Positions 4,847 through 40,509 of a stretch of DNA of 43,440 bases are shown one piece after another. Within the stretch, counting starts at the first letter, position 1. Each line of letters starts with the position of its first letter. The stretch lies in NCBI RefSeq assembly GCF_003334255.1, contig NZ_QOWU01000048.1; one strand, given 5' to 3'. This DNA comes from Escherichia coli. GTDB lineage: Bacteria > Pseudomonadota > Gammaproteobacteria > Enterobacterales > Enterobacteriaceae. A program made the translations under genes and the position numbers. The notes beneath the pieces are model-generated. The model was not told the DNA's origin and searched no databases. It saw only the letters and a program-made list of their open reading frames with translations.

Positions 4847-4869
4847 ATAACTATACTCCCCGCATAGCT

Positions 4870-4956
4870 GAATTGTTGGCTATACGGTTTAAGTGGGCCC
4901 CGGTAATCTTTTCGTACTCGCCAAAGTTGAAGAAGATTATCGGGGTTTTTGCTTTT
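4870..4956 (+). ncRNA. copA: CopA antisense RNA (copy-number control), approximate bounds
   Basis: Lies on the strand opposite the repA leader, between copB and tap. Imperfect long hairpin (CCCCGGTAATCTT...AAGATTATCGGGG) followed by TTTTTGCTTTT at about 4898-4956, as expected for the CopA terminator stem-loop. 5' end not determined. Confidence 0.5.
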
Positions 4957-6453: not shown

Positions 6454-6915
6454 TTATTTACGGTGTCTCCATATCCAGGGGGGAACCGGATCAGCATCTG
6501 ACCAGAGCCCACGTTTTTGTTGTCTGGCTTCGTTCTGAAAGACAGGCAGCGCGGGATCTGTGTTGTACTGCTCATATACCCAGGCAGCCCCGGCCCGGAC
6601 CATAAACTGATTAACATTCATTCCGTCTGGTGCATAAACCTGCCCGAGAATACGACCATAACGATCTCGCTGAAAATATGTGACGGTAACCGTTTTTCCT
6701 GCAACCAGTGATTTCATCATGTCTGTCGACCACCGGCCATAATCCTGTTTCTTTTCCGGTGCATCAATATTTACCAGCCTGATCCGCACCGCCTTCCGTG
6801 AGTCCATGACCTCGATGGTATCACCGTCCAGTACACGAACAACCCGTCCATGAATATCTGCACACAATACCGGCCATGAAAAGATAAATAATACCAGTGG
6901 AATATATTTCCTCAT
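6454..6915 (-). CDS. Secreted thermonuclease (staphylococcal nuclease/SNase-like), about 153 aa
   Basis: Signal-peptide-like N-terminus (MRKYIPLVLFIFSWPVLCA) followed by SNase-like blocks ('DGDT', 'RIRLVNIDAPE', 'YGR', 'GLWSD'). Start trimmed to the ATG at 6915, which has a GGAGA RBS. ORF-track start at 6975 is an over-extension. Confidence 0.8.
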   Translation of the reverse strand: MRKYIPLVLFIFSWPVLCADIHGRVVRVLDGDTIEVMDSRKAVRIRLVNIDAPEKKQDYGRWSTDMMKSLVAGKTVTVTYFQRDRYGRILGQVYAPDGMNVNQFMVRAGAAWVYEQYNTDPALPVFQNEARQQKRGLWSDADPVPPWIWRHRK

Positions 6916-6993
6916 GTTATTCTCCATATCAGATAAATAGCACCTGTATTTCATGCATCCTGAATATTGCAGCACACACTGAATAACACCTTA

Positions 6994-7015
6994 TTTTGTG
7001 AAATTAATCACAAAA
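6994..7015. promoter_or_regulatory. CRP-like palindrome TGTGA-N6-TCACA upstream of the nuclease gene
   Basis: Sequence TTTTGTGAAATTAATCACAAAA has perfect TGTGA/TCACA half-sites with a 6-nt spacer, about 90 bp upstream of the nuclease ATG. Confidence 0.35.
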
Positions 7016-7472
7016 TATAAAATCACGACTTAATACGGAAAAAACTCTGTGCTACTCAGAACTGTCCGGTCATACTTCCCGACCGGATATTAAAAAAAGC
7101 AAATCTCATGCATTATTCAGCCTTCTGAATCCCTGGAGTAATGAAGGCTGCTTTTTCGTTACACCCTTCCCCGGCAGCGCCGGTGGCAGTGTTCAGCCCT
7201 TTTTCGGGCAAACTGCTGCCAGTCTGTCCGGGGAGCAGACTGCGCAGCCCGTAGCCATGCCTCAGCGGCTCCCGGCCAGTCCCCCCTGACTTCCAGCCGG
7301 ACAGCCCGGCGTCCGACCTGCCGGTAGCGCCATACCCCGGAGTTTTGCGAATCACGCCCTGTTCCGTTCATTTTCCTTCCCCCTTTAATCCAGGCCGGTG
7401 AATGTGTTATAAATTTTTATAACCTTCTTCTGCCGGGTATGGAAGAAGGTTTCAGAGAAGCCTTATTTTTCC

Positions 7473-7504
7473 GCCTCCTTTAGTGTGAAGGAGGCTTTTT
7501 TATT
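7473..7504 (+). terminator. Intrinsic-terminator-like hairpin (GCCTCCTT-N8-AGGAGGC followed by TTTTTTATT) at the finO 3' end
   Basis: Perfect 7-8 bp GC-rich stem followed by a T-run on the plus strand. Overlaps the finO stop codon. May terminate plus-strand read-through or act bidirectionally. Confidence 0.4.
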
Positions 7505-8060
7505 GTTCATCAAGCACGGCCTGAAGTTCTGCCTTTATCCGGTTCTGGCGGCGGATTTTATCCAGACGCTCTGCCGCATACACTTCTTCCTCCTGAGAAA
7601 TATGCTCCGTCACATACCCTTCCGTGTCATACCGGCAGGCACCGGCTTTCATGGCACACAGATAGCTTTCTGAACGGGTGATGGCCTTCAGCGCCCTGCG
7701 CAGTTTTTTATGCGAGAGCGGGATATTCCGCTGCGCCACGTCTTCCAGTAACACGTCCCGGATACCGCAGGCCAGAAGTCGGGGTGTGTCACCGTCAAAT
7801 AATCCCGGCCACCAGGGTTTCAGGGTGTTCACGGCCTCATCCAGCGAGGGCAGGTTCAGATAAATGGACAGCGCCTGTCTGGCCTGCGCTTTTTTTGCTG
7901 TCAGCTCTGCTTCCCGGGCAGCCTTCTCCGCCAGTTTCTGCTTTTTCACCTTCCATTTTGGTGGCGTGGTGACATTGATGATGGTTTTCCGGCTCCGGGT
8001 CGGTGTTTCCCCTTCCGTTTTCCGTTTCAGTGTCAGTACCGGTCGTTTCTGCTCTGTCAT
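7500..8060 (-). CDS. finO: FinO fertility-inhibition RNA chaperone, 186 aa (intact)
   Basis: [25 protein letters not shown]... with a Lys/Arg-rich N-terminus matches FinO. Full length, with no IS interruption. Confidence 0.9.
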
Positions 8061-9847: not shown

Positions 9848-12800
9848 TCAGTCTCCGCCCAGGGTTTTCTCTTTCTGCAGGTCACGAACCATATCCCGCT
9901 CCATCTGCTGCAGACGCTCCTGCAGCAGATTTTCCCGGGCAACCTCCCGGACCGCTTCCCGCTCCCGTTGTGATTCACGCAGCACACTCTCCGGCAGTGC
10001 GGTTTCCCGTTCAGATATGGCAGACCGGTCACGCTCCTGTCCGGCAATATCCCTGACAGCCAGCTCTGTTTTGCCGTCCGGCAGGTCAGGTTTGTTCTCT
10101 GCCATTTTCCTGACAATTTCATCTGCGCGGCGTTCCGTTTCACGGCGGATGGCCTCTTCAGCCTGCCGCTGTGCCAGTACCTCTGCCGTGACCGGTTCGC
10201 CATTTCCGGCACCCGGCTGGACGCTGTTGTCCGGGATATCCCCCCACACGCGGCCACCGGTGATGGCACCGGGATTCCACGGGCGACCTTCACCGGCGAT
10301 TCTTACCACCACACCACTGTCAGGATTATCACGGGCAATCCGGACGCCATCCTGCATATTATCAGCCAGCAGGCTCTCTCCGTTACGGCTGCCCTGCAGG
10401 GCCACGAACTGCGCATCCCCGCTGCCTTTCACCCGTCCTTCACCACTGAATCCCCGCAGCCCGTTTCCGTCATCCGTGGTCAGTGGGTTCAGCCAGATAC
10501 CAGCTGACTTGCCGTTACGGTCAAACGCCGGCAGTGCCACATGCGGCTGCGGATATTTACGTCCCGGTGCAATAAACCGTGCAGGGCTGTCTCCCCCGGC
10601 CAGCCCTGCCTGACGGAGAACGGCACGGCCTGCCGCCACGTCCCGCAGTTCCCGTGCCGTACTGAACAGCCGCTGCGCATTCATGACCTCCCGGTCCGGT
10701 TTCGGCTCCAGCACATCGTGGGCAGTTCCTTTCTGTACGGCATTGTTAATGGCATCCGTCCAGCCCTGACGGTTATCGGTGTACACCTGCACATGCTGCT
10801 TCATACGCGACAGGGCCACGTAGGCTGACTCAAAGCCGGCCATCAGTTTCCGGTTACCTTCCGTGCCTTCAAGCGCGATGGCAAAGGTTTCACTCGCCCC
10901 CTGCGCACCGTGGGCGGTGATGGCATAAGCCAGGTCAATATGTTGCTCTGCCCGCTCCTGGCCGGGGCGAATCACCCGGGTCTGCTGTCCGTCTGACAGC
11001 GTGACACTGTCACCGGAAACCGCTGTCACCGTCCAGACGCTGTTGGCCACATAACCGCGCTCCCGGTCACTCTTCGTGAAGCGCATCCGGTCGCCGGTCC
11101 CCACCCGGATTTTGTCCGGGGTGTACAGTGTGACACCTTCAGCCACCGCCTCCCGGGGCGAAATCAGCCGCGTGTTACCTTCCGCATCCTCCAGGGTTAT
11201 CAGCCCGTCATCCTTGCTGATACCGGCAATCCGGTGATACACACTATCCACCAGGGCAAGGGCATCCGGGTTATTCTCCCAGGTGGAGAGACGACGCAGC
11301 TCCCCGTCACGTATATTCGCTGTGTTCAGGACAGGCACCATGACCTGCTCTTTCCCCAGCTCACCGGCCTTTTCCCGTGCATCATGAATCATGCTGTTCA
11401 GTACGCGCCGGTCCTCATTCAGGTGCGTGACAATCAGCGTCTGCTCCCGTGCTTCCGGTGTCCTGCCGGTATAGTCGCGGACAATGGCTTCATACAGTGT
11501 CATGGGGACATCCGGAAAAGTCTCACCTTTCAGCATCGCCTTCTGCTGCGCTTCTGCCAGTTTCGCTTCCTGGCTGTGACTGAACTCCGTCACGGAGTGC
11601 TCCGGTGCCCATGCGCCCTCCTGACGGGGAACCTGAGACGGTTTCACACTCTCAAGCCCGGACAGTGCCCTTTCCACATCCCGGTTAATCAGGCTGTATA
11701 CCGCCTCCCGCAGTTCCGGCGTCTGACGCACAATCTCCTTCATGATGACCACATCGGCAGCACTGCGCGTCTGCTGGAGACGGAAAGGCTGACCGGGCGC
11801 GATGGCCTGCAGCTGGTCCGTGTCACCACTGGCCACGGCACGACCGCCACCGGCCGCAATCAGGGCGTATGCCCGTGCCATGTCGGTATTGCCCACCATT
11901 GAGCTCTCATCGAGCAGGAACAGCGTGTTGCTGAAATCCGGCGTTTCTCCGCTGCGCTGCTGCAGCTGCGTGTCATGCAGAAAGGACGCCAGCGTCTGTG
12001 CATCCACGCCGGCGCTGCGCATCTCACCGACCGCACGGTGCGTGGGCCCCAGCCCCACAACTCGGGGACGCTCACTCGCCGGCAGCATGTTCACGGCTGA
12101 CATCACCGCCCGGAACTGTGTGGTCTTACCCACCCCGGCATACCCCTGCACCACCGTGAAACGGTCGGACGTTTCCAGTATCATGCGGGTGGCGGCACGC
12201 TGTCCTGATGTCAGTTTCTCCATGAGTTCGCCAGGTACTCTCTCCATCAGCGGCGTGACCGCCTCCTTACCTTCGAGAATATGGCGAAGAATACTTTTTT
12301 CTGCCTCATACGACGCACGGGAAACCAGCAGGCCTGTGCCATAGCCTTTTGCCACATCCACATACAGTAAGTCACCGCGTTTTATCTGCGCATTGATTTC
12401 CCCTCCCAGTTCAGTAAAACCGGTTCCTTCTGCAGCAAACGACTTCGCCTCTGTCAGCAGGTCCACCATGCTGAAGGCCAGGTTTTTACTTTCCAGCACA
12501 GGAAGGGCCAGATGAATGGCCTGCTGTGCCGGCGTGTGCAGCCCGGTTTTCTGCAGACTGATAGCGGTTTCCAGCGATGTCTCACCGGCCCGCGCCTTTA
12601 TCTGCTCAGAAACCACCGTAAAGGAGGGATGGCGGGCAAGTTTTTCCGCAGTACGGGTTTCATCCAGTGAGGAATACAGCCGGACATCACGACCGCTGCG
12701 GGCCAGACCGTTCAGGGTGGCGTTGTCCATTGCCATCTGTGTGACGGAGGCAAACACCGTCGCACTGTCACTGACGGAATGCCCGGGCGTTTCCACCCAG

Positions 12801-18841: not shown

Positions 18842-21663
18842 AATGGCCCCTTCAATCGTTCTTTCTTATCATCCACCATCTGTTTTAACGCATCTTCAGA
18901 CGGTGTTGGCATTAATTTCTGTCGTTTATTTTCTTCATTATATCTGTTGTTTTGTTGAATTTCTTCCTGTTTGTGATTATTTTTTAACTCTGAATATTGT
19001 CTGTCTACAATATTTTCTTCGCCATGAATACTATTCTGAGTATCTCCGATATTCCCTTTATATTCTGTGACCATATTATCAACCTGATGTTTTACATCAT
19101 TACGGATATTACTGTCCTGCGTTCTTTGATCAATAATGGCCTGATGCCCCTGATGGTCAGCAATAATATCCTGGCTGCCACCACCCGAAGGTACGCTCTC
19201 CATTCCTTTACCAATATCCCCACGGGATTCACGCCAGGCATTATCAACACCAGGCTGCACCTGTTCCTGAACAAAAGACCATGCCATCGCCCGACGGCGT
19301 TCTGCAATCTCCGGTGAACTGGTGTTTGTCAGAATAGCTTCGGCATCCTGCGGTGCGTGTTTCATCACATACTGTGCAAACTGTTGCGACAAATCTTCGC
19401 TCATCTGCCCACTCATGCTTTCAGTACGGGATGCCATTTCAGCATATTCATGGCTGCGGGTCATATTCGTCGTGTACTGGTCGTAACTCTGTTTCGCTGA
19501 GTTCAGGGCTGCAGACAACTGGTCCACGCGGGAATCGGCATTATTGTCAGTATGGCTGCCGGATTCACTGACTTTGCGACTGGTAAAGTAATCGCTGGCC
19601 TCTTTAAAGTCCTTACTGGCTTTAGCATCGATATCATGGCGAGCATCATGGGTAGCCCTGCTGCCACTACTTGCTGAATGTGAGTCATCATCCGTTGCAT
19701 CCAGGCTCCCCTTAAATCCACCTCTGATGCCTACCCCACCACCAACACCAAGAATTTTAGGTTTAACCCCCCATTCAGCATGAGCATCAGCATACATTCC
19801 ACCAGATAGCCTGGTACTTGTTGATGCCAGTTCCTGAGTCGCCTGCTCATTACTGATATTATGCGCCTTCGCATAGCTTTCCACTGCACTGCGCATACGG
19901 CTGGCCATCATGGAGTCCTGAGCACTCATCGTGCTGTCAGCACCACCGGTGACAGAATCACTGCTCCCCCGGTTAGAACCAAACTGACTGAGCGTGTTCC
20001 AGGCACTGGCAATACTGCTGCTGAACCCATGCAGGGCACTTTCTGCTCTGTTCGATGCTTCCCGGGCCATTTCCTGTTGTGCCGCCGCAATCTGACGCGT
20101 TGCATTGATACCGACCGGTAAACGGGACATCGCCCCGCTCGCATCCATCACCATATTACCGTCACGGGTCTGTGTGGCGGTTGCGCCACTGCCGGTCTGG
20201 TACATCATCTGACCAAACGACGTGGTGCTGTTGGTGCTCCAGCTGAAGCCGTTAACGTTCTCCGTCTGCATGTTGCCGTAGGAGTAATTACCGTCAACCA
20301 CACTGCCTGCTGCACTGGCGGTCGGGCTGATAGCAGAGGAAGCGAAATGGCTGTACACACTGGAAAATCCTGCCCCGAGCCCCCTGACCATCATCCAGGA
20401 TAATGGCGGGATCATCATGGAAAGATACCCGGCAGTGGAAGCCAGATCGGAGTATTTCAGCTGTATCTGTGAAATTTCCGAGAGCACCACCGGTGCACCA
20501 TTCTGCTTTGCATAAAATGTCATGGCGCTGTTCAGAATGGCGTACAACATTGGCCATGACTGCAACCACATCAGGGCAAACACATAGCCTTTCAGGACGG
20601 ACAGCGTCAGTTTGTTGAAGACAGCCGCCAGTACCAGGAGCGGGAAAATACCGATGGCGATCCCCGTCAGGATGGTCTGCGTCATGGGCAGTGTCCGCAT
20701 CGCCACATGACCGATGGAGACATGTGCCAGACGTTGCTTCTCCATCGATGATGTGGTGGCCAGATTCACCAGGCTGGCCGAATCACCATTACGTGCGGCA
20801 TAACTGGTGATCCCCTCCTTCAGCGCATTGATGGTGACATTCTGGCGGATGATCTGGCTGGCTGATTTACTTGAGCCATAGAAGTAACTGTAACTGTCGC
20901 CAATCAGCGTACTGAACAACAGGTTCGGATCAGGGCGTCCACCAAATAGCTGCTGGGCATAATAATGCCATGTTTTTCCGCCACTCTGTGTGTCCAGATT
21001 CAGCTTGTCTTTCAGCGAAACCGACGCGTCCTTACAGGTCACGAAATTATTATTGCTGTCATAAACGCCCCGCAGCGGACTGGGGCGGGAAAAAATCAGC
21101 GTGTAAGGATCAGCGGAGGCCATCAGTTCCTCCAGCGTGTATTTGTGGTTCAGGTAAATATCCCCCATCACGCAGTTCTGCACATAATCCTGGAAAAGAT
21201 TGGCGATTTCCGGATTACGGGACAAAAAGTCGGTGCTTTTTGATACCAGTTCTGCGCCAAACAGCATCCCCGTTTTGCTGTAGGTGACACTGTCCGGTTG
21301 CGTGAAGATCATCTCGTAACTGGCCACCATTGCATGCCCGATACGGGTCGTCAGTGAAAGTGGCATCGCCAGTCCGACCGGCACATTATCCACCCGGTGA
21401 ACTTTGACCAGGTCACTGTTATCAATAATCTGCACCGATGTGCGGACATTAACCAGCAGGCTGATAAGCACAAACACGGCCACCCAGCCCAGCAAATCCA
21501 TCACGTTGTGCCGCTGTACCCACATTACGGCCACCGCGAGAACAGACAATGTGAGCGCAATTTTTTCAATGGAATCCCACGTCCGGGTCCCCATAAAAGC
21601 GGCAATGGCATTCAGGTTATTCCGCAACCACTCACCACCGGCAATCACATAAACTTCATTCAC
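18838..21663 (-). CDS. traG: TraG mating-pair stabilisation/pilus assembly/entry exclusion protein, 941 aa
   Basis: Size, N-terminal polytopic region and large periplasmic C-terminal domain match F TraG (938 aa). Syntenic with traH and traS. Confidence 0.9.
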   Translation of the reverse strand: MNEVYVIAGGEWLRNNLNAIAAFMGTRTWDSIEKIALTLSVLAVAVMWVQRHNVMDLLGWVAVFVLISLLVNVRTSVQIIDNSDLVKVHRVDNVPVGLAMPLSLTTRIGHAMVASYEMIFTQPDSVTYSKTGMLFGAELVSKSTDFLSRNPEIANLFQDYVQNCVMGDIYLNHKYTLEELMASADPYTLIFSRPSPLRGVYDSNNNFVTCKDASVSLKDKLNLDTQSGGKTWHYYAQQLFGGRPDPNLLFSTLIGDSYSYFYGSSKSASQIIRQNVTINALKEGITSYAARNGDSASLVNLATTSSMEKQRLAHVSIGHVAMRTLPMTQTILTGIAIGIFPLLVLAAVFNKLTLSVLKGYVFALMWLQSWPMLYAILNSAMTFYAKQNGAPVVLSEISQIQLKYSDLASTAGYLSMMIPPLSWMMVRGLGAGFSSVYSHFASSAISPTASAAGSVVDGNYSYGNMQTENVNGFSWSTNSTTSFGQMMYQTGSGATATQTRDGNMVMDASGAMSRLPVGINATRQIAAAQQEMAREASNRAESALHGFSSSIASAWNTLSQFGSNRGSSDSVTGGADSTMSAQDSMMASRMRSAVESYAKAHNISNEQATQELASTSTRLSGGMYADAHAEWGVKPKILGVGGGVGIRGGFKGSLDATDDDSHSASSGSRATHDARHDIDAKASKDFKEASDYFTSRKVSESGSHTDNNADSRVDQLSAALNSAKQSYDQYTTNMTRSHEYAEMASRTESMSGQMSEDLSQQFAQYVMKHAPQDAEAILTNTSSPEIAERRRAMAWSFVQEQVQPGVDNAWRESRGDIGKGMESVPSGGGSQDIIADHQGHQAIIDQRTQDSNIRNDVKHQVDNMVTEYKGNIGDTQNSIHGEENIVDRQYSELKNNHKQEEIQQNNRYNEENKRQKLMPTPSEDALKQMVDDKKERLKGPL

Positions 21664-39632: not shown

Positions 39633-40319
39633 TTACTTAACGCTATAAAATTCACGAATTATATTTAATAGCGAATCTATTTCCCCTTTATAGATACATG
39701 ACACTCTGAATAAATCAAAGTGTTCAAAAAATTCTTTTATTTTCCGTTTAACTGGTTTAATTCGATCCTCAGATGCTCTGTCTGTAATACCCAATTCTCT
39801 GGCAATTGTTGCATGACCAACACCCAGCATATAAAAAGAGAAAACAAGCAATGTCCCGGGGGAAAGATCATTCCATATCGTTAATTTGTCAGAAGTATTT
39901 GTATTACTTCCACTCTGATTTAACGCAAAAAATGGATAATCAGGAAACGGATTAATTTGCCATAAAACAACAGATTCGTCATTATAAAAAGAAACATTCT
40001 CCATCCTTATCTGATAGATTTCGCCATGAAAATTAAAACGACGACAAAATGCAGAGCCATGTCCAAGAGCCTGGCATTCCAGTTCAAGTGATGAAAGAAA
40101 AATTTCAACCTGCAGACGTATATAACTCTCTCCGGATAAGGGTTTATCTTCTCTGGAAAAGAGTTCAATAAAAGCCCCATTGGCATAAAGGATTTTCCGG
40201 TTTTTGTTACGGACACAAACCGGAACGGGAGAATTTCTGTAGATATTCTGAACGTTAAGGATGTATTTATTTACAGATTGACTGTTAAGTGGCCTTTCTC
40301 TACGATCCAGCGCACACAT
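39633..40319 (-). CDS. traJ: TraJ transcriptional activator of the tra operon, about 228 aa
   Basis: Start trimmed to the ATG at 40319 ([14 protein letters not shown]...), which has a GGAGG RBS at 5-nt spacing. C-terminal helix-turn-helix-like segment '[20 protein letters not shown]'. ORF-track start at 40379 runs into the finP/leader region. Confidence 0.8.
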
Positions 40320-40395
40320 AGGAACCTCCGTTAAGGATTCTATGGACAGTCGATGCAGGGAGGTCTGAACTCCCTGCATCGGCGATTTTCAGTTT
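40320..40395 (+). ncRNA. finP: FinP antisense RNA (approximate), complementary to the traJ leader
   Basis: Plus-strand perfect hairpin CGATGCAGGGAG-gtctgaa-CTCCCTGCATCG at about 40350-40381, followed by GCGATTTTC. Overlies the traJ RBS region on the opposite strand. Ends not mapped. Confidence 0.45.
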
Positions 40396-40509
40396 CAATT
40401 TTTAACGTGGCATTAACCACGTAATTAATATACTAATTATCTGACGTATTGTCATCTTTTTGAATCATAAAAATTCTTATATTTGAACCAACTCAAACTT
40501 CATTTTCAT

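Follow-up and report, generated by a model that had tools for sequence, protein, structure and literature searches.

The ANR-family gene yigA and a match to the antisense RNA AS-pc02 lie between a nuclease gene and finO on IncF plasmids

The DNA analysed here, referred to as the window, is a stretch of 43,440 nucleotides from Escherichia coli, in which a short interval separates the thermonuclease-family gene yigB from finO. On the minus strand, the gene order is traX, an alpha/beta hydrolase gene, finO, the interval, the thermonuclease-family gene, hha, a DUF2726 gene, repA2 and repA. The sequence of the interval is 100% identical to that of the Shigella flexneri plasmid R100 (NC_002134.1) and of many IncFII plasmids; it was matched in 3,913 PLSDB plasmids and in 3,097 of 5,426 complete E. 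coli genomes. The first-pass annotation of this DNA had described an interval of about 500 bp between the two genes. Such an interval exists, and with the RefSeq start of yigB, whose ATG has a GGAG 8 nt upstream, it spans 6916-7499 (584 bp). The features of the locus are collected in Table 1.

Table 1. Features in and around the interval between yigB and finO (positions of the window; + and - are the strands, and a dot marks features given for neither strand).
Feature	Position	Strand	Description
yigB, thermonuclease-family gene	6454-6915	-	RefSeq places the start at ATG 6915 and not at GTG 6975
Palindrome TATTTTGTGA-N6-TCACAAAATA	6992-7017	.	Perfect, 10 bp; contains the CRP core consensus TGTGA-N6-TCACA
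Hairpin TCCGGTC-N9-GACCGGA	7065-7087	.	Perfect 7-bp inverted repeat; extends across the 5' end that Rfam gives for AS-pc02
AS-pc02 (Rfam RF02876, 'Antisense to pHK01_099')	7079-7262	+	cmscan 229.5 bits, E 2.4e-61
Terminator-like CAGCCTTC-N17-GAAGGCTG, then C, TTTTT	7118-7156	+	8-bp perfect inverted repeat; function putative
yigA, ANR-family small protein gene	7159-7371	-	70 codons plus TAA; ATG 7371-7369, stop 7161-7159
Shine-Dalgarno-like GGGGGAAGG	7375-7383	-	3 nt upstream of the yigA ATG
Hairpin AACCTTCTTC-N11-GAAGAAGGTT	7421-7451	.	10 bp; between finO and yigA
Hairpin GCCTCCTT-N7-AAGGAGGC, then TTTTTT	7473-7501	+	Intrinsic-terminator shape abutting the finO stop codon
finO	7500-8060	-	Immediately upstream of yigA, same strand

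Concerning the flanking nuclease, the R100 protein encoded at 6454-6915 also matches the PADLOC candidate-defence model PDLC01096 SNc+LTD (E 2.7e-15). A nuclease gene follows yigA downstream in many plasmids, and the encoded folds are unrelated: SNase in IncF-type loci and PLDc_2 elsewhere (L017, L025, L028).

The stretch 6976-7472 had been characterised as GC-rich, which is incorrect, since its GC content is 50.1% versus 50.5% for the whole window. Only 245 bp (7141-7385) are GC-rich (63.7%), and they lie between AT-rich flanks with 36% GC (6916-7140) and 41% GC (7386-7499). This GC-rich core is essentially one ORF, yigA. The short overlapping ORFs with Gly/Arg/Ala-rich translations noticed earlier are indeed present, at 7113-7355 (-), 7159-7371 (-) and 7141-7254 (+). 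However, the statement that the region holds no convincing gene has to be abandoned, as the second of these ORFs is intact, conserved and annotated as an ANR-family gene. It looked implausible because of its GC-rich, Arg/Ala/Gly/Trp-rich composition, which is typical of the protein subgroup of YigA.

In RefSeq, this ORF is annotated as WP_001309245.1, 'ANR family transcriptional regulator'. The older name of the ANR gene of IncF plasmids is yigA, for instance in pS88 (pS88097), where the yigA transcript has been quantified by qRT-PCR (PMC3438092). Judged by its sequence, yigA is an intact protein-coding gene of the ANR family. YigA matches the NCBIfam family NF033650 with 40.1 bits (E 2.4e-10; residues 15-65 on profile positions 1-51 of 54), a small margin of 8 bits over the cut-off of 32 bits, and the two other overlapping ORFs give no NCBIfam match. 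Ten yigA homologues all match NF033650, with several sister sequences at 23-34 bits, and many sister sequences that score below the cut-off are annotated as 'hypothetical'. A Pfam scan of the 70-aa protein returned no match even at E <= 10, and PADLOC returned no defence-system match for this ORF. Moreover, the start codon is preceded by a good ribosome-binding site, a purine-rich Shine-Dalgarno-like sequence, and GGGAGGGG is found at the equivalent place in the majority plasmid type, in surrounding DNA that is only ~50% identical.

A profile search of 1.84 billion representative proteins retrieved 68 relatives of YigA. In an alignment of 27 sequences with identity down to 26% and homologue lengths of 56-94 aa, there is no variation at residues A23, E27, A35, W39 and R58 and hardly any at A46 and C62. 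The published ANR signature consists of A10, E14, A22, W26, A29, W43 and R47 (PMC4983702). The signature residues in YigA are A23, E27, A35, W39, A42, R58 and C62, all with little or no variation among the 27 homologues, and the W43 position is occupied by F54, with W in the classical-type members of the same alignment. The AlphaFold2 model built from this alignment (pLDDT 84.5) predicts three helices, at residues 7-29, 32-45 and 49-68. YigA is very basic, with a pI of 11.7, 15 Arg and a net charge of +10. Searching the PDB by sequence yielded nothing beyond TPR-like matches to designed repeat proteins that were not significant (E 0.064), and Foldseek, run with the model on the PDB, retrieved nothing more specific than three-helix, MIT or TPR bundles of a generic kind (E >= 0.25). 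Neither search brought up a solved relative, so that no structural assignment beyond 'three helices' can be made. The helix 1-2 motif LEvrG-w-eAAeAW-rAa-aP (residues 26-48) weakly resembles the tetratricopeptide (TPR) consensus.

The conservation of the gene was studied in 13 related plasmid loci with 60-100% DNA identity. The yigA ORF is intact in 12 of the 13; ten have exactly 70 codons and the others 66, 71 and 94. Alignment with related plasmids, the check that the first-pass annotation had itself proposed, thus revealed an intact and conserved short gene in the interval, the very outcome it had set against its own reading. The pooled Nei-Gojobori pN/pS is 0.38 in the yigA frame, whereas four of the remaining five frames give 0.96-1.31. 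The last one, an antisense frame, has a pN/pS of 0.45, which is an expected artefact because it has its third codon positions in common with yigA. Variable sites number 29, 30 and 53 at the first, second and third codon positions of yigA, and the N-terminal half of the gene (43 codons, mostly outside AS-pc02) gives a pN/pS of 0.41. Distant YigA homologues have saturated synonymous sites (pS 0.7-0.9) and a lower pN of 0.4-0.5, a pattern that only selection at the protein level explains.

R100 and the majority IncF type share 63-68% DNA identity over 7241-7371 and ~50% upstream of it. A sharp mosaic boundary lies at ~7240, inside yigA (L002-L014), and over 6916-7240 the identity with the majority IncF type reaches 90-100%; L014 displays the mosaic pattern opposite to that of R100. 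The sharp drop of identity at ~7240 points to recombination breakpoints within the yigA coding sequence.

The earlier suggestion of a gene remnant or pseudogene does not apply to this plasmid, where yigA is intact, but it does apply to two other copies. The copy of the classical F plasmid (F plasmid of XL1-Blue; L015 2698-2886) has an internal deletion between GCTGCCGG repeats together with a frameshift, so that both helix 3 and the long hairpin of AS-pc02 are lost. The finO gene of this classical F plasmid is disrupted by IS3. In the R100-like plasmid pC053_NDM5 (L014, about 1000-1100), a 1-nt insertion in a C-run frameshifts yigA, and its submitters annotated the wrong overlapping frame. These damaged copies indicate that yigA is dispensable.

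The other possibility raised earlier, a regulatory RNA, turned out to be well founded. The plus strand matches the Rfam family AS-pc02 with 229.5 bits against a gathering score of 40, over the full model (positions 1-185 of 185). The match covers the last 104 nt of yigA (its last 35 codons) and extends over 80 nt of the 3' flank. AS-pc02 was found on the IncFII plasmid pHK01, according to Jiang et al. 2017 as cited in PMC9029176, and AS-pc02 has been detected by RT-qPCR in vesicle RNA of strains with related plasmids (PMC12370729). The match found here is near-identical to the AS-pc02 of pHK01, is full-length and has the same orientation to a small ORF, pHK01_099 being a putative yigA. pHK01-like plasmids and R100 have a common backbone, and in sequence nothing sets the match apart from AS-pc02. 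Among the 13 close loci, RF02876 matches 11 at 136-216 bits, L008 weakly and L009 not at all, and matches in the distant yigA homologues are marginal at most. The protein gene therefore predates the RNA and is more widely distributed.

The window also contains Rfam matches to CopA, AS-traI, AS-traG and FinP with the traJ 5' UTR, located, listed together, at 4864-4954, 12193-12269, 20859-20944 and 40313-40422. The AS-traI and AS-traG matches add two more pHK01-type antisense RNA families to the window.

The fold of AS-pc02 has a z-score of -2.5. RNAalifold with the 13 sequences gave no covariation support (term +1.44, with double changes in 2 of 38 pairs), and most changes break pairs, in a set of 13 sequences that are too similar and also protein-coding. 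Regarding primary sequence, the conservation of 7079-7240 runs across the whole 6916-7240 block, for which mosaic ancestry is likelier than an RNA-specific constraint. Neither the promoter and terminator scan nor the fold yielded a convincing promoter or terminator fitting the Rfam ends of AS-pc02. Near 7079 there is, by eye, only a weak CATACT -10 (7071-7076) without a -35, and the only sigma-70-like promoter match on the plus strand (TTGTGA-16-TAAAAT, 6996-7023) lies ~50 nt upstream of 7079.

Several inverted repeats accompany these two features. The hairpin previously placed at 7064-7086 is real, is found one base further on and appears in both the MFE and centroid folds. No T-run follows it on either strand, and a 7-bp hairpin within about 500 bp is not unusual by chance (~0.3 expected by a rough estimate). 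Its variants in the related loci comprise one compensatory change, two plus-strand wobbles, one minus-strand wobble and one deletion, and thus point consistently neither to a strand nor to a structure. The use of G-U wobbles to recognise the transcribed strand was discarded, since the impression of the plus strand given by L011, L012 and L014 was undone by L016, which points to the minus strand, and by L021, where the hairpin is absent. The terminator-like stem at 7118-7156 is the conserved stem of the RNAalifold consensus, with its 8 pairs kept in 12-13 of the 13 sequences; the MFE structure of the single sequence has an alternative pairing there.

A candidate CRP site is the palindrome at 6992-7017, situated where the nuclease gene and AS-pc02 diverge. 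TGTGA-N6-TCACA has one match in the 43-kb window versus 0.04 expected. The palindrome is 92-100% conserved in 10 of the 13 loci and overlaps the sigma-70-like promoter match at 6996-7023. The geometry of a class I or class II CRP promoter was also considered and set aside, as the hand-measured distances to the candidate -10 elements misfit the canonical -41.5 or -61.5.

On the finO side, the hairpin at 7421-7451 is followed on the minus strand by only a weak T-content tail. Two plus-strand terminator-like sites stand just before the finO stop (7446-7464 and 7473-7495), as hairpins with T-runs facing finO, and the 3' arm and T-run of the hairpin at 7473-7501 are conserved across loci. By their predicted shape, these two sites could stop antisense transcription, including that of a longer AS-pc02, from entering finO. 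Neither a terminator nor a sigma-70 promoter was predicted on the minus strand between finO and yigA.

Some of these observations might be read as signs of a non-coding or decayed interval, whose ORFs would be by-products of a high GC content with rare stop codons: three overlapping ORFs are open in the 245-bp core, many related loci have another open frame on the minus strand (MDSETVHG...), the F copy is truncated, L014 carries a 1-nt indel, and there is no Pfam match. Nevertheless, such an origin is very unlikely. Purifying selection is seen in one frame only, apart from the antisense frame sharing its third positions, and this same frame scores above the cut-off of a curated family, whereas the other ORFs match nothing. 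Furthermore, the length and the signature residues are kept at 63-68% DNA identity, and homologues exist at 26-47% identity with saturated synonymous sites. That another of the overlapping ORFs is the real gene, either 7113-7355 (-), of 80 aa, or 7141-7254 (+), is hardly credible. A homologue of 7113-7355 is annotated as 'hypothetical protein' in pC053_NDM5, and this ORF is open in many loci, but it is interrupted or shortened in L007 and L013, and pN/pS in those frames is ~1.0-1.3 with no family matches.

The RNA might also be the only functional element, as AS-pc02 itself or as a longer plus-strand transcript ending at 7473-7501, with the yigA ORF conserved just by overlap. The Rfam match is very strong, the RNA has been detected by others (PMC12370729), 7079-7240 is 90-100% identical in most IncF plasmids with synonymous sites included, and two terminator-like sites face finO. 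However, the 43 N-terminal codons, mostly outside AS-pc02, keep their residues and a low pN/pS in highly diverged DNA, the protein persists in L009 and the distant homologues, where AS-pc02 is not detectable, and no covariation speaks for an RNA structure. Hence, a role for the RNA alone is considered improbable.

Taking these data together, the interval is most probably a compact regulatory locus on the IncF backbone, fully taken up by yigA and a homologue of AS-pc02. In this proposal, finO and yigA would be expressed together at the distal end of the tra region; the two genes are probably co-transcribed, since no minus-strand terminator or promoter was predicted between them and homologues of yigA overlap finO or traX by 4-11 nt. 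AS-pc02 would lower yigA expression by pairing with the 3' end of its mRNA. Cis-antisense RNAs usually act by duplex formation with the mRNA. By analogy with Aar and Rnr, YigA would bind a DNA-binding regulator by protein-protein contact and not DNA itself. Its partners could be the nucleoid-silencing proteins H-NS/StpA/Hha or a tra regulator, which are the more likely candidates because the plasmid backbone lacks an AraC/XylS activator. An hha gene is located two genes downstream of yigA. Aar is known to bind both AraC/XylS members and H-NS (PMC4983702; PMC5570504). Binding of this kind, with a block of the partner's activity, is documented for Aar and a few relatives only.

The neighbourhood of finO was surveyed for ten distant yigA homologues (30-47% identity), looked up one by one. 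A ProQ/FinO-domain gene is adjacent or one gene away in six of the ten, and the other four have no nearby FinO gene. In the FinO-linked loci (L017, L020/L032, L021, L023, L030), whose homologues are 31-47% identical to yigA, the order varies, and some have overlapping stop and start codons. The arrangements are traX-finO-anr-SNase, in which finO and anr are ordered as in IncF plasmids; traX-ProQ-anr, with an 11-nt finO/anr overlap; ProQ-orf-anr-hha, with the FinO-domain gene one gene from anr; and traX-anr-finO on pET-RE-04-1 of Edwardsiella tarda, where anr overlaps each of its two neighbours by 4 nt and FinO shares 33% identity with that of R100. The whole subgroup is unusually basic (pI about 10-12, 10-17 Arg).

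Inherited synteny may account for some of the linkage between FinO genes and anr, but the permuted gene order speaks for a further cause. On conjugative plasmids, the Arg-rich ANR-like proteins could form a FinO-associated subgroup with a real functional link, an idea that is put forward tentatively and that we would not yet favour. Under such a link, YigA would be a brake or modulator on TraJ, H-NS/Hha or FinO and not an AraC anti-activator; it would work with fertility inhibition or the distal tra operon, and AS-pc02 would tune its activity. A literature search found no paper on an ANR-finO linkage or on the function of the IncF ANR gene. The adjacency of ANR genes and finO may be new; yigA and AS-pc02 themselves are already catalogued.

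In this sense the finding is an ordinary one, since both of its features are known: the small gene is annotated and the antisense RNA is in Rfam. Its lesson of method is that a short, GC-rich and Arg/Ala/Gly-rich ORF, implausible by eye, is a real annotated gene, and that comparative substitution patterns picked the correct frame among three open ones. yigA and AS-pc02 are carried by thousands of IncF resistance and virulence plasmids, and the remaining value of the finding lies in the role of so widespread a plasmid gene and in its link with finO. If the linkage to FinO is functional, YigA could add a so far unnoticed level to the control of conjugative transfer or to the crosstalk of plasmid and host through H-NS.

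Compared with known systems, YigA resembles first of all the ANR (AraC Negative Regulator) family, whose members reportedly include Aar of EAEC pAA2 and Cnr/Rnr of ETEC and Citrobacter, said to go back to work by Santiago et al. in 2014, 2016 and 2017. Like them, YigA is smaller than 10 kDa, with three predicted helices and the signature residues (A, E, A, W, A, aromatic, R, C) on helix faces, is above the NF033650 cut-off and is plasmid-borne in enterobacteria. It differs in its charge, as the classical-type members sampled have a pI of 7.9-10.1 and a net charge of +1 to +9 and are not as Arg-rich and basic as YigA. Moreover, the helix 2-3 loop of YigA is shorter by our own count, the W43 position is taken by F, and YigA has an additional conserved residue, W51.

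The genomic context is also different, since yigA stands beside finO on a conjugative backbone and the classical ANR genes belong to an AraC/XylS virulence regulon. The AraC/XylS regulator that accompanies and activates ANR genes was found neither within +/-5 kb of yigA nor on the R100 backbone, and TraJ matches TraJ models only; the partner that gave the family its name is therefore missing from the backbone. The only AraC/XylS-type protein on R100 is a 138-aa MarA/SoxS/Rob-like one encoded inside Tn10 (L031 43537-43953; RobA_TF, E 3.9e-50), which is a possible but non-conserved ANR partner.

AS-pc02 can be compared with FinP/traJ and CopA/repA, the classical cis-antisense regulators of IncF carried by the same plasmid, which likewise pair a short plasmid RNA with part of the mRNA of a regulatory protein to which it is fully complementary. 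However, FinP and CopA are directed at the 5' UTR or leader and block translation through kissing loops, whereas AS-pc02 covers the coding sequence at its 3' end. FinO chaperones FinP. The AS-pc02 locus adjoins finO, the gene relevant to FinP, with no evidence of FinO dependence found in this analysis. Finally, Hha/YmoA are small plasmid-encoded proteins that contact nucleoid-associated regulators, and YigA, although from an unrelated sequence family, would be alike in the role proposed here by analogy; hha and yigA homologues are found together in several homologous loci.
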